This document shows positions 9,906 through 32,289 of a DNA stretch of 48,487 nucleotides, in pieces (the first letter of the stretch is position 1; the number at the start of each line of letters is the position of its first letter). Origin of the DNA: Candidatus Saccharimonadota bacterium (GTDB taxonomy: Bacteria; Patescibacteriota; Saccharimonadia; Saccharimonadales; UBA7683). The translations under genes were made by a program, and so were the position numbers. The DNA is taken from contig DAIUJM010000002.1 in assembly GCA_036848695.1 (NCBI GenBank), positions 1-48,487 on the forward strand. The letters are read 5' to 3'. Under the pieces are notes generated by a model, which saw nothing but the letters and a program-made list of their open reading frames with translations, did no database searches and had not been told where the DNA came from.

Positions 9906-10689
9906 TTCTATATTTTCTAAAACACTGTACGAAAAAAGGTGGGGTATTGTCTGGTGGGGATTGGCTATGTTCTTAACAACGCTTTTGGTGATGCTGCTGT
10001 TCCCGGTTATGAGAGATTCATTTGGCGCACAGCTCAAAGATGTGCCAGAATCACTTAAATCTATTGTTGGCGAAGCGGCTGACTATCAAAAGATAGCTGG
10101 TTTCGTAGAACTTCAAGTACTGGCGCAGATGATGTTTCTAACAATTATTTACGGAATTATTCTTTGCGTCGCCACGCTTTCTGGCGAAGAAAATCAGGGC
10201 ACACTACAAACATTATTGGCTCAGCCGGTTAGTCGTAGCCGTATATATTGGCACAAGCTAGCTGCCTGCGTATCGGTACTCACTCTTATAAGTATATTGA
10301 TGGCCGCGGGTATTTTGCTTGGCGCGGCAGTACTTGGTGAATCAATCAGTACGGTTGCCGTTTTGCAGGCTAGTTTTATGCAATTACTTCTAGCGCTCTT
10401 CTTAAGCATACTGGCTTATGCAATAGGTGCGGCAACGGGGAGCCGTGCCTTGGCTGGATCAATTGCTGGCATATACGCCTTTGCTGGATATATGGTGACA
10501 AGTCTTGCGCCAATTGCGGATGTGCTTGAAAAGCTCAACTACATCTCTCCGTATAGATACTTCATGACGACCCGTGTTTTAGAAAACGGTATTGCCGCAA
10601 AAAATATGATCCCGCTTCTTCTAGGCTCAGTTCTACTGGCCATAATCGGTTGGTATTTCTTTACACGCCGAAATATTTACCAGCAGTAA
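9898..10689 (+). CDS. ABC-2 family transporter permease
   Basis: 263 aa with about 6 TM segments. 8 nt overlap with the preceding ATPase gene. Confidence 0.65.
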   Translation: MLNSIFSKTLYEKRWGIVWWGLAMFLTTLLVMLLFPVMRDSFGAQLKDVPESLKSIVGEAADYQKIAGFVELQVLAQMMFLTIIYGIILCVATLSGEENQGTLQTLLAQPVSRSRIYWHKLAACVSVLTLISILMAAGILLGAAVLGESISTVAVLQASFMQLLLALFLSILAYAIGAATGSRALAGSIAGIYAFAGYMVTSLAPIADVLEKLNYISPYRYFMTTRVLENGIAAKNMIPLLLGSVLLAIIGWYFFTRRNIYQQ

Positions 10690-10696
10690 ATGGGTA

Positions 10697-10766
10697 GTCA
10701 TCCCAGCTAAGGCTGGGATCAACGAACTCCACTGACTTGTCATCCCCGACTCGATCGGGGATCCAG
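10697..10766. repeat. two tandem hairpin repeats of the GTCATCC..GGATC family
   Basis: gtcatcccagc-taa-gctgggatc (10697-10720) and gtcatccccga-ctcga-tcggggatccag (10739-10766). Confidence 0.8.
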
Positions 10767-11001
10767 TAATCATTCAATGCGCGTAGCGCATACAACCTCT
10801 TATTACTTTTTGTCAGCAAAAAGATAACAAAAACTGCCAACCAGACCAAAAGAACACGAAAGAACCATCAACCCAAAAAGCAGCGCCAGTTCAACGCGAG
10901 CGATCTTGGATAATATTCCTAGTTACGGATCCAAGATGAAGGAACTGGCTTGACTCAGCTTTTTGAGCCGCTGGTTCATCGGTTTTTTGGATGGTTGGGA
11001 G

Positions 11002-11058
11002 GAAGTTACCAAGCTTCGCTTGAACAATGACTGGATCCCAAATCAAGTTTGGGATGAC
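11002..11058. repeat. GAAGTTACCAAGCTTCGCTTGAA module plus inverted-orientation hairpin (ctggatcccaaa..tttgggatgac)
   Basis: The module recurs at 28438-28460 and 31211-31233. The hairpin at 11031-11058 is the mirror of the 10697 type. Confidence 0.75.
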
Positions 11059-11130
11059 GACGCGGAGTTGACTACTAATAACTATTCATAAACTACCAAC
11101 CTTAGAAAGATTCAGATATACTAAACGCAT

Positions 11131-12927
11131 ATGATTAAAAAAATACTCTCACTTCTTGTTCTTATTGGTTTATTTATTGGCGGAACACAGGTAGCCCAGG
11201 CTCAAAATGTTCAAGATTTTAAGTTTGAATCACTTGAAGCCGATTATTACCTAAGTTTAGACAGTGAAAATGTGGCGCAACTTAAGGTCGTTGAAAAATT
11301 TGTTGCCGTTTTCCCAGAATATGATCAAAACCGTGGAATTGAACGAGCAATTCCGACTAAATACAAAAAGAATAATCTAGACCTTAAAATTGAAAGCGTA
11401 CAAAACGAATATGCTATTGATCGAAATTACACAACATACGAATCTAACGACAACCTGGTTCTGCGCATAGGAGATGCTGATAGCTATGTACGTGGTCGGC
11501 AAGTTTACACCATCACCTATACTATGCGTGATGTCATAACCTTTTATGATCAGCAAGATGAATGGTACTGGGATGTAAACGGTGATCAATGGCGGCAGCC
11601 TTTTGGTTCAGTAACGGCACGTATTCACCTTGCTCCAGATCTGGCTGAGGCGATTTCTAAACAGCCAATTTGTTTCACGGGTTCTTATGGTCAAAACGCA
11701 ACAGACTGTTCGGTATCTTCAGCAAAGGAAGGCGATCAAACAGTAATCACAATAGCCTCAACAAAAGCTTTTAACCCTGGTGAAAATCTGAGCCTAGTTA
11801 TGGGTTTTAACAAAGGAGTCTTTGAAAAATATCAAATGGATCCGCTGACTATGATTCTGTGGGTGGTAGGCGGCTTAACAGTACTATTTCTCCCGGGTCT
11901 TATAGCGCTTTTAGTTATGTACCGTAAGTGGTCGAAAACCGGTAAAGATCCAAAAGGTCGCGGAGTGATTGTTCCGCAGTACGATGTGCCAAAAGGTATG
12001 AATCCTATGGTCGCGGAAGTTGTTCTAAACGAAAAAATGAGCACTCAGAGTATTTCAGCCTCAATTTTAGATTTATGTGTTGCAGGCTACCTTAAACTAT
12101 ACGAAACAAAAAAAGATAAGCTCATAGGTTCAAAAACAGAATATGAAATTGAGGTTGTTAAAGACACTACCGGTCTTTATCCTGAGCTCGCTAAAGTTGT
12201 CGACATGCTTATTAGTGGTTCGGTTACGGTGGGGGCCCGGGTTAACCTGAGCGAAATGAAGAATAAAATGTATAGCGATGTAAGCGCCATTACCAAGTCT
12301 GTCAACGAGTCTGTAGTAACTAAAGGCTATTTTGCGCATAATCCTGAAAAAGCACGTAGCGGATCTGTTGGTGTTGGAACTGCGCTGCTTATAGTGGGTA
12401 TGATTGCTTCATTCATATTTATGCCGTATACACTTGTCTTCTTCGGCTTCATTTTGGCGGGAATAATAGTTATGATCTTCGCTGCTGTAATGCCAAAGCG
12501 TACTATAGAAGGCGTTCAGACTAAAGAATATCTACTCGGTCTTAAAGACTATATGAAGCTGGCCGAAGCTGATAGAATCAAGTACTTACAATCTCCTCAA
12601 ACAGCCGAAAAAACTCCAGTTGACACCTCAGACAAACAACAGCTCATTACTTTATACGAAAAACTTTTACCGTACGCCATGCTATTTGGTATAGAAAAAG
12701 AATGGGCCAAACAATTTGCAGATCTGTACGGTGAAGGTCAGTCGCCAAGTTGGTATAGCGGCAACAGTGCCTTCAACGGTGCAGTACTAGGTAGTGCACT
12801 CAGCGGTTTTAATACCGCCGCAACATCTAGTTTTACAGCCCCTAGTAGCTCCAGCTCATCAGGTTTTTCTGGTGGCGGTGGTTTCTCCGGTGGAGGCGGT
12901 GGCGGTGGAGGCGGTGGAGGCTGGTAA
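11131..12927 (+). CDS. DUF2207-type membrane protein with poly-Gly C-terminal tail
   Basis: Signal/TM segment, large extracytoplasmic N-domain, TM cluster, C-terminal SSSSSGFSGGGGFSGGGGGGGGGGGW tail characteristic of DUF2207 proteins. Confidence 0.65.
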   Translation: MIKKILSLLVLIGLFIGGTQVAQAQNVQDFKFESLEADYYLSLDSENVAQLKVVEKFVAVFPEYDQNRGIERAIPTKYKKNNLDLKIESVQNEYAIDRNYTTYESNDNLVLRIGDADSYVRGRQVYTITYTMRDVITFYDQQDEWYWDVNGDQWRQPFGSVTARIHLAPDLAEAISKQPICFTGSYGQNATDCSVSSAKEGDQTVITIASTKAFNPGENLSLVMGFNKGVFEKYQMDPLTMILWVVGGLTVLFLPGLIALLVMYRKWSKTGKDPKGRGVIVPQYDVPKGMNPMVAEVVLNEKMSTQSISASILDLCVAGYLKLYETKKDKLIGSKTEYEIEVVKDTTGLYPELAKVVDMLISGSVTVGARVNLSEMKNKMYSDVSAITKSVNESVVTKGYFAHNPEKARSGSVGVGTALLIVGMIASFIFMPYTLVFFGFILAGIIVMIFAAVMPKRTIEGVQTKEYLLGLKDYMKLAEADRIKYLQSPQTAEKTPVDTSDKQQLITLYEKLLPYAMLFGIEKEWAKQFADLYGEGQSPSWYSGNSAFNGAVLGSALSGFNTAATSSFTAPSSSSSSGFSGGGGFSGGGGGGGGGGGW

Positions 12928-13171: not shown

Positions 13172-13365
13172 TAGGCTGTGATATACTGCTTGTGTACCAA
13201 AAATGGTACGTACCTAAACAAAATAATATCAAGAGTGTGGCGAGAGAACTGACTCGTAGACCCACCAGCAACCTATACATGGAAGTTAGAAGTTAGAATA
13301 TAGAAATTAGAAATATTTTTCTAAGATCTAAGAACTAAGATCTTTCATCTTTTTATAAGGTGCTA

Positions 13366-13452
13366 CCTTCAGCCCGTACGGGGAAGATATAGCTAGTTTA
13401 CAAAACTCCTTATTCTGAACCATGGCGGGGCAGATAGAAAGGAGTTATTTTT
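13366..13452 (+). promoter_or_regulatory. structured 5' leader of metK with SD-sequestering helix (candidate riboswitch)
   Basis: AACTCCTT (13404-13411) is perfectly complementary to AAGGAGTT (13439-13446), which contains the metK Shine-Dalgarno. An inner TCTG/CAGA helix lies at 13414-13417 and 13431-13434. Confidence 0.35.
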
Positions 13453-14451
13453 ATGTCTGTAAAAAAATCAATTTATAAAACTGCTGAATCGGTTAGCCCA
13501 AAGCACCCCGATAAAATCTGTGATCAAATCTCTGATGCCATTTTAGATGCATATCTGGGCATAGACCCAAATGCCCGCGTTGCGGTAGAAGCAGTTGGAG
13601 GTCACGGCAAAGTCTTCATTGTTGGTGAAGTCTCGTCTTCCGCCCACCCAGAAATTGAACCAATTGCCAAGCGGCTAGCGCCAAATTGTGAAATTGAAGT
13701 TCGATTAGTAAAACAAAGTCCAGAAATTGCTCACGGTGTTGATACTGGCGGCGCTGGAGATCAAGGCATTATGGTCGGCTACGCTTGTAATGAAACACCG
13801 GAGCTACTACCTCTCGAAGTTGTGCTCGGTAGAAAGCTCAATCAAAACCTATATGCACGCTGGCCATATGATGGAAAAACACAGGTAACCCTAAAAGACG
13901 GTAAAATTACCTCTATAGTTGCAAGTTTTCAAAATGCCCCTTCGGCCGAACTTAAGCAAGCCGTCCAAACTTGGTTGAATCAGCAGAACAACGAACTCCA
14001 AACTGAAAACTACCAACTATTAGCTAACCCTGCCGGCGATTGGCATCAAGGCGGATTCGACGCCGACACAGGTTTAACAGGACGTAAACTTGTTGTCGAC
14101 AATTACGGTCCTAGTATTCCAATTGGCGGTGGTTGTTTTTCTGGGAAAGATCCTAGTAAAGTTGACCGTTCGGCCGCCTATATTGCCCGCAAAATCGCTA
14201 TAGATTACCTAAAAACTCGCAGCGCTAAAGAAGTCTTTGTGCACCTTGCCTACGCCATAGGGCGTGCTGAGCCGCTAGAGGCAACCGTTACCATAGACGG
14301 CAAGCAAGAGGTTGTAGAAGGCTACGATCTTACGCCAAAAGGGATTATTGAACAGCTGGATCTGAAAAAACCAATTTATGAACAGACTGCCCGTTACGGC
14401 CATTTTGGCCACCCGGGATTCGCTTGGGAACAGCTCAGTTCTAGTTCTTAG
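13453..14451 (+). CDS. metK: S-adenosylmethionine synthetase (compact form, 332 aa)
   Basis: ESVSPKHPDKICDQISDAILDA, GAGDQGIMVGYA, GLTGRKLVVDNYG, GGGCFSGKDPSKVDRSAAY and ARYGHFG motifs match MetK. Confidence 0.9.
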   Translation: MSVKKSIYKTAESVSPKHPDKICDQISDAILDAYLGIDPNARVAVEAVGGHGKVFIVGEVSSSAHPEIEPIAKRLAPNCEIEVRLVKQSPEIAHGVDTGGAGDQGIMVGYACNETPELLPLEVVLGRKLNQNLYARWPYDGKTQVTLKDGKITSIVASFQNAPSAELKQAVQTWLNQQNNELQTENYQLLANPAGDWHQGGFDADTGLTGRKLVVDNYGPSIPIGGGCFSGKDPSKVDRSAAYIARKIAIDYLKTRSAKEVFVHLAYAIGRAEPLEATVTIDGKQEVVEGYDLTPKGIIEQLDLKKPIYEQTARYGHFGHPGFAWEQLSSSS

Positions 14452-16013: not shown

Positions 16014-16163
16014 TTATTTCTTTTTGCGAAGCTTTTCTGCTTTTATAAGTGTTTTCTGCTGATCTTGAACAGATTTTTTGTAAACACGTTGAAGAGTCTC
16101 GGCGCTCATTAGGCCGCTATTGTCTACTTGCTTTCTTTGCTTTGGAGTGAGTACTAATTCCAT
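16014..16163 (-). CDS. small Lys-rich protein (49 aa) immediately downstream of the zeta-like kinase gene
   Basis: Hand translation: MELVLTPKQRKQVDNSGLMSAETLQRVYKKSVQDQQKTLIKAEKLRKKK. It starts 12 nt after the upstream stop, on the same strand. Confidence 0.35.
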   Translation of the reverse strand: MELVLTPKQRKQVDNSGLMSAETLQRVYKKSVQDQQKTLIKAEKLRKKK

Positions 16164-16175
16164 AATGAATAATCC

Positions 16176-16871
16176 TTAGATATTACCTACATTATATTGC
16201 TTCTGAAGGAATTTTTCAATGATCTCAGACTGATCATCAGTAGGGTCATGAATGATTGAAATGGCATTACTCATGTCAGTTTGACCTCTTTTATTAAGCA
16301 CCCAAAATGAAAATTTACCATGGTCTTTAAAGCGCTTAAATAACAGTAATAAGTTGCCGTTGATCTTACTGCAGGTTTGCATGAATCCGCTACGCTCAAT
16401 AGCACGTTTCTTCACAAGCTCACGCGCCTGAGTTAGTTCCCATGCTTTTTGTGCATCTTGAACTATGTATATAACAGTCACGCGGTAACCCTTTTTTAAG
16501 CATAATTCTATGTTCTTGTATCCATTATCTTGCGAAAGAGTGCCATCAAATAGTATCGGGTAATTATTTTTCAGACAGTCTCTAAATATTCTTGTCACCA
16601 ATACATTTCCTGCACTACGAAAGGTGTAATAGTTTTCCGGTACATAGCCCTTTATGTATTCAACTAGCTTGTCGTGTTCAACCGGGACAAGACTAGGCAT
16701 GGCAAGCTTTATTGTATTTTCGGCAAACTCTGTTTTTCCCGCCCCTGGGATTCCAGCCATGAACACAGCCATTTTTTGTTGAGATACTTTATAGTTTTTG
16801 AAAAATTTATCAACAACTTCTTGCTGATTTTTCTTATTTTTTACCCACTTTTTAGCATCATCTTCGCTCAT
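16176..16871 (-). CDS. zeta-toxin-like P-loop kinase (AAA/zeta_toxin family)
   Basis: Walker A GIPGAGKTEFAE about 40 aa from the N-terminus, followed by VEHDKL and FDGTLS segments as in zeta/PezT-type kinases. Confidence 0.65.
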   Translation of the reverse strand: MSEDDAKKWVKNKKNQQEVVDKFFKNYKVSQQKMAVFMAGIPGAGKTEFAENTIKLAMPSLVPVEHDKLVEYIKGYVPENYYTFRSAGNVLVTRIFRDCLKNNYPILFDGTLSQDNGYKNIELCLKKGYRVTVIYIVQDAQKAWELTQARELVKKRAIERSGFMQTCSKINGNLLLLFKRFKDHGKFSFWVLNKRGQTDMSNAISIIHDPTDDQSEIIEKFLQKQYNVGNI

Positions 16872-16979: not shown

Positions 16980-17174
16980 CTAAAGGCCGAGGAGGCCGAG
17001 GACTGCATGCATAACATAAGCTGGCCAGACGAAGGATTTTAGTACTGCTACTATAAATTCGCCGAAGCCGTTAGAAGCTTGCACAAAATATACTAATGCG
17101 CCGATCCAGGCCACGAAAAACACATACCCCATCGGCCCACTCTTTTCAATCACCTTAGTTTTATTCATTCCCAT
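16980..17174 (-). CDS. small two-TM membrane protein (64 aa)
   Basis: AAGGAGG lies 5 nt upstream of ATG 17174. Two hydrophobic helices. Confidence 0.5.
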   Translation of the reverse strand: MGMNKTKVIEKSGPMGYVFFVAWIGALVYFVQASNGFGEFIVAVLKSFVWPAYVMHAVLGLLGL

Positions 17175-17255
17175 AACCACCTCCTTATTTACATTTTTAT
17201 AATACTCCTTTGATCAACAGTTTAAAATGAATCATCAAAATGCTATTGTTTATGT

Positions 17256-17900
17256 ATGAAGATGAAAGATCGAGCCAAGGCTGATCGGCCACGCGAAAAG
17301 CTGGCAATCAAAGGGGCTGCATCACTTTCTGACCTCGAATTACTCATGGCGTTGATTGGTAGTGGCAACAAACAGGCAGATGTTGGCAAGATTGCAAAAG
17401 ATACTCTCAAATTAATTCAAGCCCATGGGGCAGATATATCGTATGAGCAACTGCAGCAGGTGACTGGAATGGGATCAGCTAAAATTACTGAAATATTAGC
17501 AGCACTCGAGCTTTCTAAACGCTACCTTATAGATTCAGAACAACCAATTATAGATTCGCCAGAAAAAGCCGCAGAACAACTCGCCGACATTCGCGACAAA
17601 AAACAAGAATATTTTGTATGCCTTACTCTCGACGGCGCAAACCGACTAATCGCCAAACGCACAATCACCATCGGCACCCTCACTTCCAGCCTAGTTCACC
17701 CTCGTGAAGTCTTCGCCGACGCCATCGCTGACCGCGCCGCATCAATCATTATCGCTCATAATCATCCGAGTGGTAGCGTTAAGCCATCAACCGCAGATGT
17801 AGAAGTTACTAATCGCTTAACCAAAGCCGCACAGCTGGTGGGCATTAGCTTAGTAGATCATATTGTAGTTACAAAAACATCTTTTGCCTCTATACTATAG
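17256..17900 (+). CDS. radC: RadC-family JAB/MPN domain protein
   Basis: N-terminal HhH-like region and C-terminal JAMM motif (IIAHNHPSGSVKPSTAD). Confidence 0.85.
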   Translation: MKMKDRAKADRPREKLAIKGAASLSDLELLMALIGSGNKQADVGKIAKDTLKLIQAHGADISYEQLQQVTGMGSAKITEILAALELSKRYLIDSEQPIIDSPEKAAEQLADIRDKKQEYFVCLTLDGANRLIAKRTITIGTLTSSLVHPREVFADAIADRAASIIIAHNHPSGSVKPSTADVEVTNRLTKAAQLVGISLVDHIVVTKTSFASIL

Positions 17901-17902
17901 TT

Positions 17903-18565
17903 ATGTCGCACGCAAAAAATGAAAAAACCTATGCATTCATTGATAGCCAAAATTTAAACTTGGGTGTTAAAAATGATGTCATCAATGCCAAAGGCAAGGT
18001 GATTTATCGTGGTAAACAGCTTGACTATCGAAAATTTCGCCACTACCTTCGTGAAAAGTATAACGTCTCGCAAGCCTATATATTTATAGGTATGGTTCCT
18101 ACTAACAACAGCCTATATACATACTTGCAGCGATGCGGCTTTACGTTAGTTTTTAAAACCATTTCTACATATATGGATGAACGCGGTCAGACTATCACAA
18201 AGGGCAATGTCGATACTGATATTGTTTTATGGTCAGCAGGAAAGTTAGAGATGGAATATGACGCAGCAGTTTTTGTTTCCGGGGACGGAGATTTCTTAAG
18301 CCTTTACGAGTATATGGATGAACTTGGAAAATTGAAGAAAATTATTGTACCTAACCGAATGAGATATTCGAAGTTATTAAATTCTTTCAGAGATAGACTA
18401 GCATTCGTTGGAGATGTGCCTAAGTTGTTAAATGAAATTCAGACAAACAAAAAGACCAGGAGCAGCGGTCGGATCACATCCTTAGGCCAGCCTGGTCGTG
18501 GTGATACTAAGAATATAGCAAAAAAGACCAAAAAAGTCAATAGGAAGCGTAAGGGCAAACCATGA
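17903..18565 (+). CDS. NYN (LabA-like) domain putative ribonuclease with Lys/Arg-rich tail
   Basis: AFIDSQNL...[10 protein letters not shown]...VFVSGDGDF acidic motifs of the NYN/LabA fold. Starts 2 nt after the radC stop and overlaps hsdR by ATGA. Confidence 0.75.
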
Positions 18566-20433
18566 GCATTGACAAGTTAACAGAGATGGAGATTCGTACT
18601 CGACTCATCACTCCCGCCATTCAAAATGCGGGATGGCAGATTGATACAGTTCGTGAGGAATTTTATTATTTTACGCAAGGTAGAATCATTGTTCGTGGCA
18701 AGAAGTCTTTTCGTAAAGATCGAAAATTTGTAGATTACTTACTTTTCAGGCAGGACGGCACCAACACCCCCCTGGCTATTGTCGAAGCAAAAGACGGCAG
18801 TCACGACGTAGGTGACGGGATGCAACAGGCATTAGAGTACGCGGAGCATTTAGATGTACCATTCGTATTTACAAGCAACGGTGACGGCTTTGTAATGCAC
18901 GACAGAACCGACCAACTTGCGGAAGTCGAAAAAACTATATCGCTTAATGATTTTCCCAGACCCGACGAGCTAGATGCTCTGTATCGTTCTTGGCGCGGAA
19001 TAGAAAACGAATCCTCGCAAGAACTTCTCAATACCCCGTACCATGATGATGGTAGCGGTAAAAAGCCTCGTTACTATCAAAGAGTTGCAATAAATAGAAC
19101 AATTGAAGCAATAGCTCGTGGACAAAAAAGAATACTACTTGTTATGGCTACGGGTACAGGAAAGACATTCACTGCCGCACAAATCATCTGGAGATATTGG
19201 AAAGCCCCGACAGAAAAGCAAAAAAGAATTCTATTCCTGGCAGACAGAAACATTCTTGTCGATCAAACAAAATCCAATGATTTCAAGCATTTTGGCACTG
19301 CAATGACTAAAATCGAAAATCGAAATATCGATAAGTCGTACGAAATTTACCTGTCGCTCTACCAGGCAGTAACTGGCACAGAAGAACAAAGTAATATATA
19401 TAAACAATTTGATCGTGACTTTTTTGATCTTATTGTCATTGATGAATGTCACCGCGGAAGTTCCAAAGAAGACAGCTCATGGCGAAACATTCTGGAGTAC
19501 TTTAGTTCAGCGGTCCAGGTCGGCTTGACTGCGACACCAATTGAAACGAAAGAGGCCAGCAGCTCGCATTATTTTGGAGAGCCAATCTACACATACTCAT
19601 TAAAAGACGGCATAGATGACGGCTTCTTAGCACCATACAAAGTTATCCGAGTCGCAACTGATGTAGATACCTTCGGCTACCGACCAGAAGAAGGTGAGAC
19701 AGATGATGACGGCAACGAAATTGAAGACAAAGAATATACCAGTAAAGATATCGACCGGAATATAATTCTCCCTGAACGCGACAAAAAAGTCGCCCGGTAC
19801 ATCACAAAGTTTCTAGAAAAGACCGATCCTTATGCCAAAACAATTGTTTTCTGCCGAACCATTAATCACGCAACTCGTATGCGACAAGCGCTCATCAATG
19901 AGAACCCAGAACGAGTCCGCGAGAACAGTAAGTACGTGCTCAAGATTACAGGCGATGACCAAATTGGCAAAGCCGAACTGGATAGTTTTATAGACCCAGA
20001 ATCACGCTACCCTGTTATTGCGACAACTTCAAAGTTAATGACCACTGGTGTTGATGCGCAAACTTGCAAGGTGATAGTGCTCGACAGCAATATTGAAAGC
20101 ATGACGGAGTTTAAGCAAATTATTGGTCGCGGGACGCGCGTTCGTGAAGACTATGGCAAGACCTATTTCACAATTTTAGATTTCCGTAATGTCACTAAGC
20201 TGTTTGCAGACCCTGGTTTTGACGGTGACCCGGTCAAGGTATATGAACCTAAAAACGAAGATGAGTTTGACGAAACGATTGAAGATATTGAAAACGACAC
20301 CTACCCAGCGCCAGAAGAAAACACCGATTCTGATTTCGTGCATGATTCAGGCCCAGAAACGGAAGTATATATTCCAGATCCCCGTACAGATAAAGTAGAA
20401 CGCATTATCCATACCATTAGCGGTAGCAGGTAG
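18562..20433 (+). CDS. hsdR: type I restriction enzyme R subunit, N-terminal 623 aa (nuclease plus helicase core); truncated by a frameshift
   Basis: HSDR_N-type start ([14 protein letters not shown]), PD-(D/E)xK region (FVDYLLF...VEAKD), helicase motifs [24 protein letters not shown]. Confidence 0.85.
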
Positions 20434-20450
20434 AAATAGTCGGCGAGAGA

Positions 20451-20969
20451 GTGCAAATTATTGATGCTGAGGGTAAGTTAATAACCGAAAGTCTCACTGA
20501 CTACACAAAACGCAACATCCTTGGAGAATACGCAACGCTCGACGAGTTTCTGCAAACTTGGCAAAACGCGAAGCAGCGATATTATATCCTTGAGGAGTTA
20601 GAAAACAAAGGTGTACCACTTTCCGAATTAAGAGAAAAATTTGGCGGTGACATGGATCTATTTGATCTTGTACTACACATAGCTTATGACCAGAAGCCAC
20701 TCAAGCGTTCCGATCGCGCAGAGTCTGTGCGGCGCAGCAAGTTCTTTAATGAATACCAAGGTAGGGCGCGTGAAGTCCTAGAGGCGCTACTGGATAAATA
20801 CGAATCAGCAAGTCTCAAAACAATTGAAGACCCTTCAATCCTACGGCTAAAGCCAATAGATCAGTTTGGGACACCAGTAGAAATAGCGCAATTGTTCGGT
20901 GGGATTGAACATTATCAAACGGCAGTTAATCAGCTTGAAGAAAAGATATACGAAAGAGCGGGGGCTTAA
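20451..20969 (+). CDS. hsdR: detached C-terminal domain of HsdR (EcoEI R-type C-terminal domain) in a different frame
   Basis: This frame is open from 20427 ([27 protein letters not shown]...), continuing the HsdR architecture. It ends 0 nt before the hsdM ATG. Confidence 0.6.
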   Translation: MQIIDAEGKLITESLTDYTKRNILGEYATLDEFLQTWQNAKQRYYILEELENKGVPLSELREKFGGDMDLFDLVLHIAYDQKPLKRSDRAESVRRSKFFNEYQGRAREVLEALLDKYESASLKTIEDPSILRLKPIDQFGTPVEIAQLFGGIEHYQTAVNQLEEKIYERAGA

Positions 20970-22412
20970 ATGATCACATCAGGACTTATTAAAACTATTC
21001 AAGACATCATGAGAAAAGACGAAGGTGTGGATGGTGATGCGCAGCGGCTTAGTCAGTTAGTCTGGCTTATTTTTCTTAAAGTCTTAGATGACAGCGAAAA
21101 GCAAAAACAGTTTTTAGATAGTAGTTATGCTTCAGTCATCCCAGTCGAGTATCAGTGGCATACCTGGGCGGCTGACCCGGCGGGAATTACTGGCGATGCA
21201 CTACTAGACTTTATAAACAACGAACTCTTCCCGGCACTAAGTCAGCTGCAATCTGCTGGCAATAAGCGAGCCGACATCATCCGTGCTGCCTTTGAGGGGT
21301 CGTATAACTATATGAAGAACGGTACGCTTCTGCGTCAGGTAATTAACAAGATAAATGAGATAAATTTTAACTCTACCGATGATCGCCACAGCTTTAATGA
21401 TATTTACGAAAACCTGCTGGCTAGTCTACAGAGCGCCGGCAACGCTGGTGAATACTACACACCACGACCCGTCACAAAGTTTATTGTTGAGATGGTTAAC
21501 CCTCAACTTGGTGAAAAAATATTTGACCCTGCTTGCGGTACTGGCGGTTTTTTAAGTAACGCTATTGAACACATGCGCCCACAGGCGAAAACCCCAGAAG
21601 ACCTCAAACTACTTGAAGCCTCCATCTACGGTGTTGAAAAAAAGCAACTGCCGTATTTGCTCTGTAGTACCAACATGATTCTGCACGGCATAGAAGAACC
21701 TTACAACATTCGTCACGACAACACACTGCGCAAGCCACTAACTAGCTACGGTCCTGCAGACTATGTAGATTGCATCACCGCCAACCCACCATTTGGTGGT
21801 AAAGAAGAAGACGGTATTGAAGATAACTTCCCAAGCTGGGGTCGCACCCGAGAAACCGCCGATCTCTTTTTGCAACTTTTTGTTCGTTTACTCAAACCTG
21901 GCGGCCGCGCCGGAATTGTACTACCAGACGGCACGTTATTCGGTGAAGGCGTGAAGACACGCATAAAAGAACACTTACTAGAAGAATGTAATCTCCACAC
22001 AATCGTTCGCTTACCAAATAGCGTATTTGCTCCCTACACATCTATCGCTACAAACCTGCTATTTTTCACCAAAGGCGAGCCAACCAAAGAGATCTGGTAC
22101 TACGAACACCGCTTGCCGGAAGGTGTAAAAGCCTACAACAAAACCAAACCAATCTGTATTGAAGAATTTGATGAAATTAAATCTTGGTGGAATGACCGTA
22201 AGGAAAATGAAGGCGCCTGGAAAGTCAGCATAGATGAAATCAAAAAGCGCGGCTATAACCTCGACATAAAAAACCCAAATATCGTAGAGGTAGACGAACT
22301 TAACCCAGAAGAAGTATTAAAAGATTATCGCGCCAAACAAGCCGAAGTTAAAGAGATACTAGAAAAAATCAAAGCAGAACTCACCGAGGCACTCGCACAC
22401 CATGACCGTTAA
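20970..22412 (+). CDS. hsdM: type I R-M system DNA methyltransferase subunit M (N6-adenine)
   Basis: HsdM N-terminal domain, AdoMet motif FDPACGTGGFL, catalytic NPPFG. Confidence 0.95.
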   Translation: MITSGLIKTIQDIMRKDEGVDGDAQRLSQLVWLIFLKVLDDSEKQKQFLDSSYASVIPVEYQWHTWAADPAGITGDALLDFINNELFPALSQLQSAGNKRADIIRAAFEGSYNYMKNGTLLRQVINKINEINFNSTDDRHSFNDIYENLLASLQSAGNAGEYYTPRPVTKFIVEMVNPQLGEKIFDPACGTGGFLSNAIEHMRPQAKTPEDLKLLEASIYGVEKKQLPYLLCSTNMILHGIEEPYNIRHDNTLRKPLTSYGPADYVDCITANPPFGGKEEDGIEDNFPSWGRTRETADLFLQLFVRLLKPGGRAGIVLPDGTLFGEGVKTRIKEHLLEECNLHTIVRLPNSVFAPYTSIATNLLFFTKGEPTKEIWYYEHRLPEGVKAYNKTKPICIEEFDEIKSWWNDRKENEGAWKVSIDEIKKRGYNLDIKNPNIVEVDELNPEEVLKDYRAKQAEVKEILEKIKAELTEALAHHDR

Positions 22413-24048
22413 AGACCTCCGTACTCTAGTAGATAGCCTAGAAGAGTACATTCACGTACCCGGCGGCATCGAACGCCTCAAAAAAACCATTCTCCACTTA
22501 GCAGTTTCAGGTAAGCTGGTTCCACAAGACCCATTCGAAGGAACCGGCGAAGAGCTTTATAAACAAATCCAAGTCGAAAAGCAAAAGCGTATAGCTGAAG
22601 GCAAAGTAAAAAAACAAAAACCATTATTAGAAATAGCAAATGATGAAATTCCATTTGAAATCCCACAATCTTGGAAATGGGTGAGACCACAGGAGGTGGG
22701 CCAAATCAACCCAAGAAATTATGTCGACGATTCCATTGATATTGGTTTCATCCCAATGACAAAAGTGAGTGAAAAATATGGTGCCGCTCCTAAGTATGAA
22801 GTTCGTAAGTGGATTGAAGTAAAAAAGAACTTTACCCATTTTGCTGATGGCGACGTTGTTCTTGCAAAAATTACACCATGCTTTGAAAATTCAAAAGCAG
22901 GAATCATCGTAAGTTTACCGAATCATTATGGTGCTGGTACTACAGAACTGCATGTTTTTAGGCAAGATAGCAAATTAATACTTCCTAAGTACTCCTACTT
23001 ATGGTTCAAAAATCCAACCTATCTTGAAACCGGTAAAACTAAGATGACCGGTTCTGCAGGACAGAAGCGTGTTTCTACAGAGTTCTTTGCAAACTTTCCT
23101 ATGCCACTTCCGCCCTCTAGTGAGCAGCTTAGGATAGTTGAAAAAGTTGATGCTATATTTGCGCTGATTGATGAACTTGCAGAAAAATATGTCGTGGAAC
23201 AGAAAGAGCGTGAAATGCTCGTTGGTTCATCGCTCGCACATTTAGCAAAAGGTGACGGAAACCTTGCGCTCAAATATCTACTAGAAATAATACGTACCAA
23301 ATCAGACGCAGCGCAACTCCGCAAAACGATCCTCCATCTCGCTGTCTCTGGCCAACTCGTCCCACAAGACCCATCAGAAGGAACCGGCGAAGAACTCTTT
23401 GCCAAAATCCAAGCCGAAAAAGCCAACCTAACCAAAGAAGGGAAGCTAAAAAAGCAAAAACCCCTTTCCGAAATCACCGAATCCGAAGTCCCATTCCAAA
23501 TCCCCAAAACCTGGAAATGGGCCAGATTAGGTGAAATCTCCAATATCTTTAATGGAAATAGCATCAACGCAAGCGAAAAGAAGTTGAAGTATGAGAAGGT
23601 AGCAGAAGGCTACCCCTATCTTGGCACAAAGGATATTGGTTATGGGTTCGATAATATCGATTATGATAATGGTGTAAAAACACCGTATGACGAAGGTAAA
23701 TTTACTGTGATACCAAAAGGCACGGTTTTGATTTGTTCTGAAGGTGGGAGTGCTGGGAAAAAGTGCGGAATCGTTGATCGGGACGTAACTTTTGGCAACA
23801 AAATGTACGCATTTAACGCTTATGGCAACAATATGCTTCCGGATTTCGTACTATACAACTACTTAACAAAGCACTTCCATAATCACTTTATTGGCAAAAT
23901 GACAGGCATAATTGGTGGCATTTCTGTAGCAAACTTTAAAGAATTGATCATCCCGCTTCCACCGCAAGATGAACAAATTCGCATCGTCCAAAAAACCACT
24001 CAGCTTTTAGATTTAGTAGACGAACTAGAGAAACACCTAGAGAGGTAA
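22402..24048 (+). CDS. hsdS: type I R-M system specificity subunit S
   Basis: Two target-recognition domains separated by duplicated conserved helices (LKKTILHLAVSGKLVPQDP... and LRKTILHLAVSGQLVPQDP...). 11 nt overlap with hsdM. Confidence 0.9.
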   Translation: MTVKDLRTLVDSLEEYIHVPGGIERLKKTILHLAVSGKLVPQDPFEGTGEELYKQIQVEKQKRIAEGKVKKQKPLLEIANDEIPFEIPQSWKWVRPQEVGQINPRNYVDDSIDIGFIPMTKVSEKYGAAPKYEVRKWIEVKKNFTHFADGDVVLAKITPCFENSKAGIIVSLPNHYGAGTTELHVFRQDSKLILPKYSYLWFKNPTYLETGKTKMTGSAGQKRVSTEFFANFPMPLPPSSEQLRIVEKVDAIFALIDELAEKYVVEQKEREMLVGSSLAHLAKGDGNLALKYLLEIIRTKSDAAQLRKTILHLAVSGQLVPQDPSEGTGEELFAKIQAEKANLTKEGKLKKQKPLSEITESEVPFQIPKTWKWARLGEISNIFNGNSINASEKKLKYEKVAEGYPYLGTKDIGYGFDNIDYDNGVKTPYDEGKFTVIPKGTVLICSEGGSAGKKCGIVDRDVTFGNKMYAFNAYGNNMLPDFVLYNYLTKHFHNHFIGKMTGIIGGISVANFKELIIPLPPQDEQIRIVQKTTQLLDLVDELEKHLER

Positions 24049-24054
24049 TTCGGT

Positions 24055-24318
24055 TTATTGAACGCTTCCGAGCGAAGGACCTTTAATCGCGTATTTTAGC
24101 TTAACGTCGGTAGTATTTATGTATGTATGTAGACCACTACCCTGATTTGCTAGTGTTTTCATTTGATTAATGGCAGTCTGGCTAGCACTCGCGTGAGTGT
24201 ACTTGTAGAATCTAATGGCACTATATTTATTCGGCTTAAATTCAACTATGATGTAATCGCCTCCGATCATGTAGTTTAGGACACCTGATTCTCCGCTAAG
24301 ATTTGCATAAGATTCCAT
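24055..24318 (-). CDS. KTSC-domain-like small protein (87 aa)
   Basis: IIVEFKPNKYSAIRFYKYTHASASQTAINQMKTLANQGSGLHTYIN resembles the KTSC (lysyl-tRNA synthetase C-terminal-like) domain pattern. Confidence 0.5.
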   Translation of the reverse strand: MESYANLSGESGVLNYMIGGDYIIVEFKPNKYSAIRFYKYTHASASQTAINQMKTLANQGSGLHTYINTTDVKLKYAIKGPSLGSVQ

Positions 24319-24436
24319 TTTATCCTCCTTGGATAGTAATTATTCTTTGCTATACTCGGAGGGTGACGCATTTTTGCGCCACCCAACCATGTTCGTCAGA
24401 TCTGCTTCCCGCTAAAAGAATGCAAGTCTGGCGATT

Positions 24437-24655
24437 TTACTTTGTGTGACAGTCTGTGCAGTGTGCGCAACCGTCAATATCCCAGTTTGGATACTCTGAC
24501 TCAGCATCTTCAATTGCGTCACCGCAATCGAAATGCCAGCCAAGATTAATCTGGTTGGCAGGGGCTGGGTATGTTTCGCTATTGCAGTGTACATCAGTAT
24601 CATGAACTTCATGATGATTGTCATACTCTTGTGAATTGAGAACATATGTACTCAT
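24437..24655 (-). CDS. Cys/His-rich acidic mini-protein (72 aa)
   Basis: GAAAGGA lies upstream of ATG 24655. Reads MSTYVLNSQEYDNHHEVHDTDVHC...FDCGD...GCAHCTDCHTK. The longer track ORF start lacks an RBS. Confidence 0.45.
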   Translation of the reverse strand: MSTYVLNSQEYDNHHEVHDTDVHCNSETYPAPANQINLGWHFDCGDAIEDAESEYPNWDIDGCAHCTDCHTK

Positions 24656-24863
24656 AACAGTCCTTTCGTTGATTAAAGTTGATATATTTTGGAAATTTAG
24701 GTTTTCTCGCAGTAAACGCAATCTCCTCCGAACCCCATTACATCCCACCTTTGTTTTGTAGTTCTACCATACTATAGCGTAAAAAGAGATATCTTGTCTA
24801 GTATCTGCCGCCATTTTCACTGAAAAGTACTAAAGTGCACGAATTTTTGATACAATATAAATA

Positions 24864-25508
24864 ATGCATACAGTTCAACAAAAACTATTAGATCTGGCAG
24901 AATCAAAAGATTTGTCACGAATTCCACTCCGCAAGATAGCTGTTCTTATAGGCACACCCAGTATGAGTCCTGGTGTTTTACAGCATCACTTCGCGCAATT
25001 AGAAAAGAAGAAACTTCTATTTATCGACCGCAAGGTGAAGACGCAGCAGCTGGGCGCTGATTTGAAGGATGATAGGTTCTTCGCGATACCTATTGTTGGC
25101 ATGGCAAGCTGTGGCCCGGCTAATCAATTTGCGGACGAGGCAACCGAAGGCTATCTTCATGTGTCGAAAAGCAGCCTGAGGGCAAAAGGAAAATTATTTG
25201 CCGTACGTGCAGCGGGTGATTCTATGAATGACGCACGTGTTGCAACGCCAAATGGTGAGCTAGCCTCAATAAATGATGGTGACTATGCGATAGTTGACAT
25301 TTTCTATGTATCAGTTGAAGACAATATAGGAAGATATATCGTCTCAATAATCAATGGGATGGCTAATATCAAAAAACTTGCCAAGAGAGCATATGATTAT
25401 GCGCTTCTTTCAGAGTCCTTAAGTATGGAAAAATATCCACCGATTATTATTCATGAAGATGATAACTATTTGATCAATGGGCGTGTAATAGCAGTAGTGA
25501 AGGGATAA
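24864..25508 (+). CDS. lexA: LexA-like repressor (winged-helix N-domain plus S24 peptidase)
   Basis: S24 catalytic Ser in AAGDSMND, Lys in ANIKKL, and a candidate self-cleavage site in [11 protein letters not shown] aligned to the LexA VAAGEP region. Confidence 0.75.
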
Positions 25509-25510
25509 TT

Positions 25511-26731
25511 ATGAAACAAGTCGTGTGTCCGCATTGTAAGAAGGCTTTCAAGATTGATGAGGCGGGGTTTGCTGATATTTTAAAGCAGGTTCGAGATGGT
25601 GAATTTGAGAGTGAGCTTCATGAGCGCTTGGCATTGCTTGAAAAAGAAAAAGAAAGTGCGGTTCAGTTGGCTGAAGCCAAGACTAAGAACGAGCTACAGG
25701 CTGAGGCGGCGAAGAAAGATGCTGAAATTGCCAAGCTGAAGGCGGATAAAGAGGCGGAAGTTGCACGGCTTCAGGCGAAGATTGAAGCATCTGAGACAGA
25801 GAAGAAGCTGGCTTTGACTGAAGCGGTGAATAAGTTGGAGCGAGAGCGTGATGAGCTTAGTAATAAGCTAGAGTATAAGGAATCAGAGAAGCAGTTGCTG
25901 GAATCTTCACTGAAGGTTAAGTATGAGGCTGAACTGAGATCAAAAGATGAAACGATTGCACTGTATAAAGATATGAAGGCCAAGCTTTCTACTAAGATGC
26001 TCGGTGAAACACTTGAGCAGCACTGCGAGATCGAATTTAATAAAATCCGCGCCAGCGCCTTTCCAAATGCCTATTTTGAAAAAGACAACGATGCCAGCAC
26101 TGGTACTAAAGGTGACTACGTGTACCGCGAAACTGATCAAGCTGGCAATGAAATCATCTCCATAATGTTTGAAATGAAAAACGAAGGTGATGAAACTGCC
26201 ACAAAAAAGAAGAACGAGGATTTCTTAAGCAAACTTGATGACGACCGTAGAAAGAAGAACTGTGAATTTGCAGTACTGGTTACCCTGCTGGAAGCCGATA
26301 ACGAACTATACAATACAGGCATTGTGGATGTTTCGCACAAATACCCAAAGATGTACGTTATCCGACCTCAATTCTTCATACAAATTATCACTTTACTCCG
26401 AAACGCTGCCATGAATTCTATGCAGTATAAAGCCGAGCTTGCATTGGTTAAGACACAAAATATAGATGTCACTAACTTTGAAAACCAGTTAAATGACTTC
26501 CGGGATTCTTTCGGCCGCAATTACCGGTTAGCATCGGAAAAATTCAAGACTGCTATTGAAAGCATTGACAAGTCTATTGTTCAGTTGCAGAAAACCAAAG
26601 AAAACCTATTGCGCTCAGAAGACAATCTGCGAATCGCTAACAATAAAGCCGATGAGCTCACTGTCAAAAAACTCACCCGAAGCAATCCAACTATGGCTGC
26701 CAAGTTCGCTGATCTAGAAAGTAATGAATAA
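25511..26731 (+). CDS. DUF2130-type protein: N-terminal Zn-ribbon, long coiled coil, C-terminal RmuC-like putative nuclease region
   Basis: VCPHCKKAF start, about 130 aa of E/K-rich heptads, then GDYVYRE...[10 protein letters not shown] (a D...ExK-like pattern). Starts 2 nt after the lexA-like stop. Confidence 0.65.
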
Positions 26732-26793
26732 GAGCAGAGTATAGTGTATTACAAACTACCCATGCCCACCTAACCGTTGGAATGTTACGGCTA

Positions 26794-32053: not shown

Positions 32054-32289
32054 GGTGTTAGTATATAGTTTCTTGTTACTAGGTTCTAGTATGGGAATAG
32101 TTCGCTGTTCGCAGATCAGACCATCGCGCCCGTGGTGGTCCCGCCTGTCTGATCGAGCCACCTGTCTTTCTGACAAGAAGGCCAGGCAGAACAGGCAGGC
32201 GGGACGGGGTGGACTGCCTGGGGTGCGGTGGCTTTGTCTAAGAACTAAGAACTACAAACTAAGAACTATCTCGGGGTATACTAAATACC

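Follow-up and report, generated by a model that had tools for sequence, protein, structure and literature searches.

A radC–NYN–type I restriction-modification string in a Saccharibacteria genome, probably a juxtaposition of backbone genes and an exchangeable defence island

The hsd 'immigration control region' and strain-variable defence-island hot spots are known from E. coli and Salmonella. The locus described here lies in a window of 48,487 nt (the whole stretch of DNA that we analysed) from a Candidatus Saccharimonadota bacterium. It resembles the immigration control region in that conserved genes flank a slot that unrelated type I restriction-modification (R-M) families and other defence genes occupy in turn in different strains of one species, and in that the cargo of the slot in this species includes GmrSD and a toxin-antitoxin pair. 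As in that region, we found neither an integrase among the domain-annotated island genes nor direct or inverted repeats of at least 9 nt at the island borders. It differs in that (i) the left breakpoint falls within the last seven codons of a NYN-domain gene and each cassette rewrites the C-terminal end of NYN and its coupling to the following gene, (ii) radC keeps its role as anchor across species of a phylum-level group, and (iii) the host genome measures about 1 Mb and the organism lives attached to other bacteria.

A preliminary description had modelled the string on PrrC and RloC instead, proposing that NYN, possibly together with RadC, could be a latent RNase that is masked by the type I complex and serves as a suicide back-up when a phage inhibits restriction. 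As in those systems, a predicted RNase gene and a type I R-M operon share their orientation and are tightly coupled; in the Saccharibacteria L002, L009 and L046 NYN homologues lie between hsdM and hsdS, comparable to prrC inside the hsd locus. Unlike PrrC and RloC, the NYN of the window lies outside the operon, carries no ABC-ATPase or anticodon-nuclease (HEPN-like) domain in Pfam profile searches, is not inherited together with any single R-M family, and is highly conserved and found mostly in housekeeping operons.

The fold and the conserved acidic residues are those of the LabA-like NYN proteins (PF01936, NYN.COG1432 group; crystal structure 2QIP), a family of unknown function for which tRNA or rRNA processing is suspected from gene context (PMC5499597). 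Unlike other LabA-like proteins, the Patescibacteria subfamily carries at its C-terminus a basic, disordered tail that is conserved (KKTRSxGRxTSLGxPGHGD...KVN) and lacks an OST-HTH/LOTUS domain. HEC-09, a NYN-domain candidate from within Hma defence systems (Payne et al. 2024, bioRxiv 10.1101/2024.01.29.577857), is likewise a NYN-fold protein found through 'guilt by embedding' in a defence system. Unlike the window NYN, it has an N-terminal helix-turn-helix-like domain, and the similarity between the two is sub-threshold only (E 0.0046, 14.6 bits, over the GDGDF region) and constitutes the sole PADLOC match of NYN.

Anatomy of the string and the hsdR frameshift

Re-reading of the sequence confirmed every junction and coordinate of the tightly packed radC–NYN–hsdR–hsdM–hsdS string in the preliminary description, and Pfam, PADLOC and NCBIfam profiles bore out the gene identities (Table 1). 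The radC stop codon (TAG, 17898-17900) is followed by TT and by the NYN ATG, leaving a gap of 2 nt; NYN and hsdR share an ATGA, in which the NYN stop codon (TGA, 18563-18565) overlaps the hsdR ATG (18562-18564); the stop codon of the hsdR C-terminal fragment (TAA, 20967-20969) directly precedes the hsdM ATG; and the last 11 nt of hsdM overlap hsdS. This packing exceeds chance only modestly, because five of 19 same-strand gene pairs elsewhere in the window also overlap or lie at most 10 nt apart, and NYN orthologues in other genomes overlap whichever neighbour adjoins them. We found no convincing internal terminator within the string, and therefore all six reading frames may be co-transcribed; such predicted co-transcription would represent operon read-through rather than functional coupling. 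The radC–NYN–type I arrangement is absent from PADLOC, in agreement with the earlier view that the architecture had not been described.

Table 1 Features of the string and the adjoining island (window coordinates)
Feature	Position	Strand	Length	Description
radC	17256..17900	+	214 aa	Canonical RadC; left anchor of R-M hot spot; probable conserved backbone gene
NYN/LabA-like (COG1432-type)	17903..18565	+	220 aa	Pfam NYN PF01936, 45.7 bits (cut-off 24.2 bits)
Strain-variable island	18543..26791		8.25 kb	Defined by strain comparison
hsdR N-terminal part	18562..20433	+	623 codons	Premature TAG 20431-20433; HSDR_N nuclease, ResIII/SWI2-SNF2 motor, Helicase_C
hsdR frameshift site	20420..20433	+	1-nt deletion	One G of GGTAGGCAGG lost versus intact allele of L086
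hsdR C-terminal fragment	20427..20969	+		Different frame; EcoEI_R_C domain, Pfam 4e-31
hsdM	20970..22412	+	480 aa	N6-adenine methyltransferase subunit; Pfam N6_Mtase 2.3e-78, HsdM_N 1e-12; PADLOC MTase_I 6.8e-216
hsdS	22402..24048	+	548 aa	Specificity subunit; Pfam Methylase_S in two stretches, 9.4e-32; PADLOC Specificity_I 2.5e-115
S24 LexA-like gene	24864..25508	+		Pfam Peptidase_S24 5.7e-14
DUF2130 gene	25511..26731	+		Pfam DUF2130 4.9e-89; 2 nt after S24 gene

RadC is canonical. It combines an N-terminal UPF0758/HhH domain with a JAB domain whose HNHPSG...D motif is invariant in the RadC alignment, matches the Pfam profiles PF04002 RadC (1.1e-40) and UPF0758_N (7.4e-17), and reaches 209.5 bits with the NCBIfam RadC equivalog (cut-off 180 bits).

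Pairwise alignment of hsdR with the intact, 802-aa allele of L086, a strain 97% identical to the window, shows that GGTAGGCAGG is changed to GGTA-GCAGG near 20424, outside any homopolymer tract. Three contigs, with listings under NCBI, Logan and ENA, carry the truncated HsdR of 623 aa. This N-terminal part of HsdR covers positions 5-580 of the 807 positions of the PADLOC REase_I profile (1e-266), and the C-terminal fragment, for which the first possible start is a GTG at 20451, covers positions 625-802. The intact allele belongs to the EcoAI/type IB family (NCBIfam EcoAI/FtnUII model, 1103 bits). HsdS has two target-recognition domains, and within its gene the conserved spacer region is repeated over 203 nt (22483-22681 versus 23323-23521, 72% identity). 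Judged from these reading frames, the window strain has probably retained the M2S methyltransferase and lost, or greatly reduced, restriction.

A strain-variable island anchored at radC

In the window strain, the island comprises the type IB hsdR (frameshifted)–hsdM–hsdS genes, an 87-aa ORF, and the S24 LexA-like and DUF2130 genes as remaining cargo; the latter two are absent from the island of the L081/L104 strain. The loci L081-L085 and L108 match the window at 99.4-99.8% until 18542/18543 and are unrelated beyond, L109 matches in the same identity range but only until 18506, and homology of L104, L106 and L107 resumes at 26792. The left breakpoint of same-species strains is located seven codons before the NYN stop (18543), so that the last seven NYN codons (18543-18565) belong to the variable cassette; the flanks are at least 99.4% identical, and radC shows 99.4-99.8% DNA identity across all strain variants. 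Downstream of NYN, which is 98-100% identical among the strains, we saw four junction variants, three of them unrelated type I cassettes and one without R-M: (i) the EcoAI-type hsdR–hsdM–hsdS of the window strain; (ii) a different type I system (HsdR 1027 aa, HsdM 539 aa, HsdS 380 aa) followed by SocA/Panacea, GmrSD, DUF2779 and HD genes in an island of 14.6 kb; (iii) an hsdM-first cassette; and (iv), in one strain, a 50-aa ORF followed by asparaginase and HIT genes. Between the first two cassettes, HsdR is 21% and HsdM 23% identical.

We therefore consider the string to be, with fair probability, a juxtaposition of conserved backbone genes and a swappable defence island and not a dedicated NYN–R-M module. 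radC and NYN would form part of the chromosomal backbone that is conserved in a Saccharibacteria species, and the hypervariable island that runs from the NYN breakpoint to 26791 would act like an immigration control region. Whole R-M cassettes would be exchanged between strains, likely through uptake of DNA by natural transformation and its homologous recombination within the conserved flanks; natural competence is established for Saccharibacteria, as is recombination with flanks of about 1 kb (PMC10187176). Each cassette would supply its own last NYN codons and its own first gene, and the ATGA overlap would be present because it arises where the cassette joins, in a genome with tight packing anyway. 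It counts against juxtaposition that a type I gene lies directly 3′ of NYN in three of the four junction variants of this species and that the hsdM-first cassette is 80% protein-identical (190 N-terminal residues available) to the cassette that follows radC–NYN in the distant species L022.

Comparison across species shows that radC, rather than NYN, is the general anchor. Among the nine closest radC relatives with downstream sequence (67-79% identity), eight have an R-M-type gene within one or two genes 3′, namely type I hsdM (four), an N6_N4 (type III-like) methylase with Fic or DUF6022 (three) or a SNF2 helicase (one), and NYN is found beside none of the nine. No other family neighbours radC more often than the type I genes do.

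The NYN protein, its genomic contexts and alternative explanations

Residues 1-180 of NYN form the NYN fold, and residues 183-220 form the disordered tail with a conserved motif ending in (H/R)GD...KKVN. The AlphaFold2 model has a mean pLDDT of 81 (tail <50) and retrieves 2QIP (E 2.9e-8) as well as the MARF1 NYN domain 5yaa in Foldseek; a PDB profile search gives 2qip at 7.7e-08. The catalytic acidic residues, on which the preliminary description depended, are intact: 25 homologues all share D14, D104, D106, D128 and D130. The closest orthologues from other species, at 70-85% identity, occupy other contexts with 1-4 nt gaps or overlaps, arranged as pheS–NYN–(GDSL)–pheT (L090, L001, L095, L099), GNAT–NYN–ftsK (L091) or Bac_transf–NYN–GT4 (L097); the suspected role of the LabA-like family in tRNA or rRNA processing fits the placement between pheS and pheT. 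When the same genomes are compared, NYN is conserved more strongly than the neighbouring aminoacyl-tRNA synthetases PheS and PheT (L090 versus window: NYN 79-81%, PheS 61%; L090 versus L099: NYN 70%, PheS 63%, PheT 46%).

The immediate neighbours of 80 NYN homologues spread over 118 Pfam families. A type I operon adjoins or contains the NYN homologue in seven of 80 GTDB species, with different R-M families and with NYNs scattered over the NYN tree, and of the eight hsdM matches in the 20-kb regions of the NYN homologues, seven are no more than 3 kb away from NYN; both results count against juxtaposition. The chance expectation for such adjacency is, as a rough estimate, about 1% or less, derived from a CPR figure of about 0.26 type I HsdR hits per genome (bioRxiv 10.64898/2026.07.13.738296). 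The link of NYN or RadC with type I R-M in Patescibacteria is statistically non-random, and the hsdM–NYN–hsdS arrangements (L002, L046) are not easily explained by the hot-spot model. The counter-expectation in the preliminary description, that orthologous radC–NYN pairs normally occur without R-M genes nearby, largely holds for NYN: R-M is absent within 10 kb at 73 of 80 loci, with the seven type I-associated species remaining.

This link could reflect a looser partnership, which we regard as unlikely, in which RadC and/or NYN act generically alongside any R-M family and selection keeps them beside R-M loci; they might process or recycle restriction-cut nucleic acids, handle competence-imported DNA, or alleviate restriction via HsdR. 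Among immediate neighbours, type I genes rank first both for NYN (N6_Mtase at 6 of 80 loci) and for radC (N6_Mtase 6 and HsdR 4 among 115 neighbours), L157, L161, L166 and L168 contain hsdM–hsdS–hsdR–radC strings whose gaps measure 4-5 nt, all five radC+NYN pairs seen (window species, L003, L010, L022, L178) carry type I R-M, and the PADLOC candidate PDC-S01 adjoins 10 oral-clade NYN loci; the R-M-type genes 3′ of the closest radC relatives point in the same direction. However, positional hot spots beside conserved genes yield the same pattern without a functional link, a specific partner is disfavoured by the variety of R-M types beside radC (type I, type III-like, SNF2), R-M is missing from most NYN loci, radC and NYN rarely occur together (one of 80 radC loci), and no biochemistry is known for the LabA-like NYN or RadC families (PMC5499597, PMC5512222).

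It is very improbable that NYN is mobile cargo of R-M cassettes, one of which would earlier have carried it into the radC hot spot, where it took the place of an ancestral pheS–pheT copy. In L102 of the window species a 217-aa non-NYN gene lies between pheS and pheT, and the sole NYN copy seen is at radC; NYN is inside islands in L010 and L178; and NYN identities are out of step with those of RadC (78% versus 48% for NYN in L003) or PheS (62-63% versus 41-45% in L011, L015 and L037). Within the species, however, the breakpoint places NYN with the invariant sequence, and its nearest relatives (80-85%) lie in non-R-M housekeeping contexts.

The PrrC/RloC-like mechanism is not supported and appears very improbable: the tight coupling to hsdR, the intact fold and active site, the homologues inside hsd operons, the radC–hsdM–NYN order in L010 and L178, and the precedents that genes found inside type I systems frequently have a defence role and that the unrelated HEC-09 is embedded in Hma (bioRxiv 10.1101/2024.01.29.577857) stand against the facts that specific masking is hard to square with the same NYN (last seven residues aside) beside three unrelated type I families or none, that hsdR is frameshifted and yet NYN shows no visible decay, that the PrrC domains are missing and the only PADLOC match is sub-threshold, that the closest orthologues sit in pheS–pheT and ftsK operons and exceed PheS and PheT in conservation, and that HEC-09 gave no defence when tested (same source). 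What stands of the preliminary description is its anatomy, the NYN active site and the non-random type I link.

Juxtaposition of backbone and island remains our preferred reading. Fold, active site, conservation and housekeeping contexts indicate that NYN is most likely a conserved Patescibacteria RNA-processing nuclease, independent of R-M. Several R-M types have, across Saccharibacteria, used the 3′ flank of radC as a landing site over long periods; NYN is present there only sometimes.

Gene string and encoded proteins

All six reading frames and every junction of the radC-NYN-hsdR-hsdM-hsdS string were located by sequence check where the preliminary description had placed them, and the gene names used there are backed throughout by domain searches (Pfam, PADLOC, NCBIfam). 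The genes hsdR, hsdM and hsdS lie together in one operon and form a type I R-M system of the EcoAI/type IB kind; HsdR shows the domains HSDR_N, ResIII and Helicase_C, its EcoEI_R_C domain being read in the second frame, and on NF046051 (EcoAI/FtnUII family, type IB; cut-off 550) the score of the intact hsdR allele is 1103.5 bits. RadC reaches 209.5 bits on the equivalog NF000642 (RadC, TIGR00608; cut-off 180), contains the Pfam domains UPF0758_N and RadC (JAB domain), and its HNHPSG motif and a downstream Asp are invariant in alignment A3. We ran PADLOC on all genes of the string, as had been proposed, and obtained type I components only: RadC gave no match, and NYN matched HEC-09, an NYN-domain candidate, below threshold (E 0.0046). 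The closest relatives of NYN, of RadC and of PheS are without exception from metagenome-assembled Saccharibacteria genomes, which assigns the window to a member of this group.

Tight packing is general in the window, where 5 of the 19 other same-strand gene pairs overlap or lie at most 10 nt apart. Stop–start overlaps and unbroken strings are to be read with caution, as they are no proof of functional coupling in very compact genomes. Predicted promoters and terminators between 16800 and 24900 do not exceed shuffled expectation, and an Rfam scan returned only a tRNA-Gln and a SAM riboswitch, neither within the gene string.

Coordinates of features in the window, of the left-junction variants V1–V4 and of comparison loci (L numbers)
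Feature	Sequence	Position (nt)	Strand	Remarks
SAM (S-box) riboswitch	window	13223–13393		46.3 bits (gathering score 44.4); directly upstream of metK
metK	window	13453–14451		unusually short, 332 aa
ORFs beside kinase	window	~16014–16163, ~16980–17180		49 aa after, 64–66 aa (membrane-like) before the kinase
zeta-toxin-like kinase	window	16176–16871	−	PF06414, 3.1e-20; just upstream of radC, opposite strand
radC	window	17256–17900	+	TAG end; NYN start 2 bases further on
NYN	window	17903–18565	+	own TGA and hsdR ATG share ATGA, 18562–18565
NYN tail motif	window	18440–18542		~residues 180–213
hsdR, first frame	window	ATGA overlap to TAG 20431–20433	+	
hsdR remainder, other frame	window	open from 20427 to TAA 20967–20969	+	first start GTG 20451
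hsdM	window	20970–22412	+	ATG 20970 directly after hsdR-remainder TAA; HsdM_N, N6_Mtase
hsdS	window	22402–24048	+	11 nt common with hsdM; two Methylase_S domains
hsdS direct repeat	window	22483–22681, 23323–23521		203 nt, 72% identity
Exchangeable island	window	18543–26791		left break 18543, right break 26792
S24 LexA-like and DUF2130 genes	window	24864–26731		2 nt apart
Cas4-like PD-(D/E)XK nuclease	window	31262–32176	−	
RmuC gene	window	35962–37047		
pheS, partial	window	from ~47472		runs off window end
V1	window			EcoAI-type hsdR, ATGA overlap with NYN
V2				NYN end ...KKVN-TTRDRIQ; 5-nt spacer; 1027-aa HsdR (T1R_D3-like domain), 539-aa HsdM, 380-aa HsdS; downstream SocA/Panacea, GmrSD, DUF2779, HD genes; island 14.6 kb
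V3				NYN end ...KKVN-S(L/F)PIGLRIDNE; hsdM overlaps NYN by 8 nt
V3 HsdM, first 190 residues	L108	3245–3814		
V4	L109			break 37 nt earlier; 50-aa ORF overlapping by 4 nt, then asparaginase and HIT
hsdM-NYN-hsdS-x-hsdR	L002	8374–15511		
hsdM-NYN-Fic-...-hsdS...hsdR	L009	3664–9264		
hsdM-NYN-x-hsdS	L046	2–4154		
radC-hsdM-NYN-x-KAP NTPase-hsdS	L010	7838–12700		
radC-hsdM-NYN	L178	7995–10974		
radC-NYN-hsdM-HATPase-hsdS-hsdR	L022			hsdM 10607–12067
NYN-radC-RhuM-hsdM-HATPase...hsdS...hsdR	L003			
NYN, hsdM fragment, hsdS	L023			in that order
972–1001-aa ORF and radC	L157	5063–8651		
972–1001-aa ORF and radC	L161	2174–5846		
972–1001-aa ORF and radC	L166	2970–6567		
972–1001-aa ORF and radC	L168	5065–8651		

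Compared with L086, a strain whose DNA is 97% identical to the window and whose hsdR is unbroken (802 aa), the window hsdR lacks one G (GGTAGGCAGG to GGTA-GCAGG); the frame is thereby shifted with 179 codons left to the natural stop, and HsdR is divided into pieces of 623 aa and roughly 172–180 aa. The truncated protein is recorded on three contigs (listed under NCBI, Logan and ENA); we take the frameshift to be a real allele and not the artefact of a single assembler, although these records may share one sample. Programmed frameshifting or phase variation at the break was considered and rejected: the site GGTAGCAGG is not a homopolymer, nor is it a slippery heptamer, and it has one G fewer than the intact allele. 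Judged by this allele, the window strain probably still methylates its DNA, with restriction weak or lost. The direct repeat within hsdS encodes a duplicated conserved segment (LHLAVSG(K/Q)LVPQDP.EGTGEEL...) ahead of each target-recognition domain and is a possible substrate for specificity-changing recombination.

NYN is a genuine member of the LabA-like PF01936 proteins and has a PIN-like fold. PF01936 is its sole Pfam domain (45.7 bits, gathering score 24.2; residues 9–158) and is found in all but one of the 120 NYN homologues listed. The AlphaFold2 model (mean pLDDT 81) comprises an alpha/beta domain (residues 1–180) and a disordered stretch (183–220), and Foldseek places it with 2QIP (LabA-like NYN; E 2.9e-8, target TM-score 0.76) and the MARF1 NYN domain (5yaa; target TM-score 0.70), in agreement with a PDB profile search. 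Loss of the catalytic residues, named in the preliminary description as a route to refuting its proposal, is not what we find: D14, D104, D106, D128 and D130 are invariant in an alignment of 25 homologues. Given these conserved acidic residues, the predicted nuclease looks active. The basic tail is partly conserved (...KKVN), and its motif KKTRSxGRxTSLGxPGHGD...AKKxxKVN is conserved across Saccharibacteria, though predicted disordered, which suggests a binding peptide whose target may be nucleic acid, the ribosome or another protein.

A strain-variable island behind NYN

Comparison of strains of the same species settles the question of coupling, as it identifies the R-M cassette as exchangeable cargo. 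The contigs L081–L085 align with the window at 99.1–99.8% identity over a stretch that begins no later than 7903 and stops at 18542, and they have nothing in common with it beyond. To the right, it is L104 (one contig with L081), L106 and L107 that align with the window, starting at 26792 and at 98.2–99.9% identity. Since flanks that are 98.2–99.9% identical enclose interiors that are unrelated between strains, the interval between the two breaks is an exchangeable island. Behind one and the same NYN gene at least four left-junction variants occur, and the four junctions provide NYN with four different C-terminal ends. V1 and V2 carry different type I families (21% identity for HsdR, 23% for HsdM), and defence genes dominate the content, the alternative islands holding two more type I systems, GmrSD and SocA/Panacea.

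The V3 HsdM fragment shares 80% identity with the HsdM found behind radC-NYN in L022, a distant species, against 64% for RadC and ~46% for NYN between the same two species; thus, two divergent lineages have one R-M family in the same slot. At the island borders we found no att-like repeats of 9 nt or more, and no integrase is present among the island genes with domain annotation. Saccharibacteria are naturally competent and recombine with ~1-kb homology arms (PMC10187176), and the cassettes are likely to be swapped by allelic replacement through homologous recombination in the flanks. In its behaviour, the locus resembles an hsd 'immigration control region' or defence-island hot spot.

Several further genes were noted in and around the island. 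The S24 LexA-like and DUF2130 genes are present in V1 strains (L086, L105), not in the V2 island; the two could make up a small pair that is mobile or linked to defence. The zeta-toxin-like kinase and both small ORFs are conserved in every strain variant; no epsilon antitoxin is recognisable beside the kinase. The Cas4-like nuclease and RmuC genes belong to the conserved backbone downstream of the island.

Neighbourhoods of NYN and radC in other Saccharibacteria

Outside the window species, the nearest NYN genes lie in housekeeping operons. The order is pheS-NYN-GDSL lipase-pheT in L090 (81% identity) and L095 (77%) and pheS-...-HIT-NYN-pheT in L099 (70%), while in L001 (79%) other small genes are interposed as well between pheS and pheT. 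NYN is found as GNAT-NYN-ftsK in L091 (80–85%) and as sugar transferase-NYN-glycosyltransferase in L097 (69%) and the more distant L060. At these loci NYN is likewise separated from its neighbours by gaps of 1–4 nt or overlaps them. In the window species an unrelated 217-aa gene stands between pheS and pheT, from which we conclude that NYN has moved. Within the same genome pairs NYN has diverged less than PheS and PheT, a pattern not usual among accessory defence genes. No member of the bacterial COG1432/LabA-like group has been characterised biochemically, and the group is suspected of tRNA or rRNA processing (PMC5499597), a role that the pheS-pheT placement fits.

Across 80 species-level loci the immediate NYN neighbours belong to 118 Pfam families, and type I R-M adjoins or surrounds NYN at 7 of these loci (L002, L003, L009, L010, L022, L023, L046). 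Seven of the eight hsdM matches in the 20-kb NYN intervals lie within 3 kb of NYN. Based on ~0.26 type I HsdR matches per genome in a CPR-wide survey (bioRxiv 10.64898/2026.07.13.738296), we roughly estimate chance adjacency at ~1% or less. Type I R-M is thus over-represented around NYN and the association is non-random. The R-M families differ among the NYN-linked loci. An R-M-specific NYN clade was rejected, as the R-M-linked NYNs are scattered over a neighbour-joining tree, each nearest to a non-R-M NYN (L046-L065 88%, L022-L060 74%, L009-L050 73%, L003-L004 70%). Extra genes (Fic, KAP NTPase or unknown) are embedded in NYN-bearing type I operons. Ten further NYN loci of closely related oral Saccharibacteria (L016, L020, L025–L031, L034) neighbour the PADLOC candidate PDC-S01 (AAA_14-DUF4143 ATPase; best E 2.8e-139), most likely encoded by 422-aa ORFs ~0.4–0.6 kb downstream of NYN, and some appear to have another copy of similar size upstream.

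Of the two genes, radC serves more generally as the anchor, and NYN is an occasional resident of its region. Type I genes are the commonest among 115 immediate radC neighbours in 80 metagenome loci (N6_Mtase 6, HsdR 4), and by tblastn at least one type I component lies within 8 kb of radC in ~22 of the 80. We further compared the nine closest radC relatives with downstream sequence (67–79% identity). In four, hsdM is within the first two genes 3′ of radC; three carry Fic or DUF6022 together with an N6_N4 (type III-like) DNA methylase, and one a SNF2 helicase, so that eight of the nine have such a gene just downstream, and none has NYN. The positional hot spot is the simplest reading, because different R-M types fill the slot. 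In the more distant metagenome loci L157, L161, L166 and L168, a radC of canonical length begins 4–5 nt after a long ORF; four immediate radC neighbours match HsdR-type domains (HSDR_N, T1R_D3-like) and are most likely these ORFs. Upstream of them, tblastn detected hsdM and hsdS in L168, hsdS in L166 and hsdM in L157, and the implied string would be hsdM-hsdS-hsdR-radC. radC-NYN was rejected as a conserved pair, since it occurs at 1 of 80 radC loci and ~4 of 80 NYN loci; all five pairs seen are also accompanied by type I R-M.

Readings of the association

The best explanation for the adjacency of radC, NYN and R-M genes is an R-M island that can be swapped and lies beside conserved genes. We regard it as rather unlikely that RadC and/or the NYN nuclease of Patescibacteria serve R-M systems in general as functional accessories; possible roles would be a DNA-bound JAB peptidase or nuclease that aids or alleviates restriction, or an RNase or DNase that acts as a second line of defence. 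Such a role would agree with R-M genes being the commonest neighbours of both radC and NYN, with the repeated position of NYN between hsdM and hsdS, and with the recurrence of hsdM-hsdS-hsdR-radC strings with 4–5 nt gaps in metagenomes.

The preliminary description had read NYN as a latent RNase held by the type I complex in the manner of PrrC and RloC. These proteins combine an N-terminal ABC-type ATPase with a C-terminal anticodon-nuclease domain, are embedded between hsd genes and belong to one cognate R-M system; PrrC is kept latent by the EcoprrI complex. NYN differs in all three traits: (i) it consists of a single NYN domain and a disordered tail (Pfam, AlphaFold2), (ii) in the window it lies upstream of hsdR, outside the operon, embedded cases being confined to other species (L002, L009, L046, L010), and (iii) the same NYN (98–100% identical) precedes three unrelated type I cassettes, or asparaginase and HIT. 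PrrC-like masking is not expected, as three unrelated complexes would each have to mask the same NYN, which in other strains would have none to mask it. The strain comparison and the three missing traits thus contradict a PrrC-like mechanism in this species. Part of the preliminary interpretation stands: the association is non-random and the architecture undescribed. The literature searched for radC or NYN with type I R-M contained no description of this architecture, nor of any association of radC or NYN with R-M in Patescibacteria; general statements exist on PIN-like nucleases adjoining type I R-M (PMC5499597), on genes embedded in type I systems and on the NYN candidate HEC-09, which gave no defence in a test (Payne 2024, bioRxiv 10.1101/2024.01.29.577857).

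In Saccharibacteria, the 3′ flank of radC, or of radC-NYN in the window species, predictably marks a hot spot for R-M and defence genes, which is useful for the mining of defence systems and for predicting methylation barriers to genetic work. The association of RadC and NYN with R-M offers a testable lead on the function of two large protein families.
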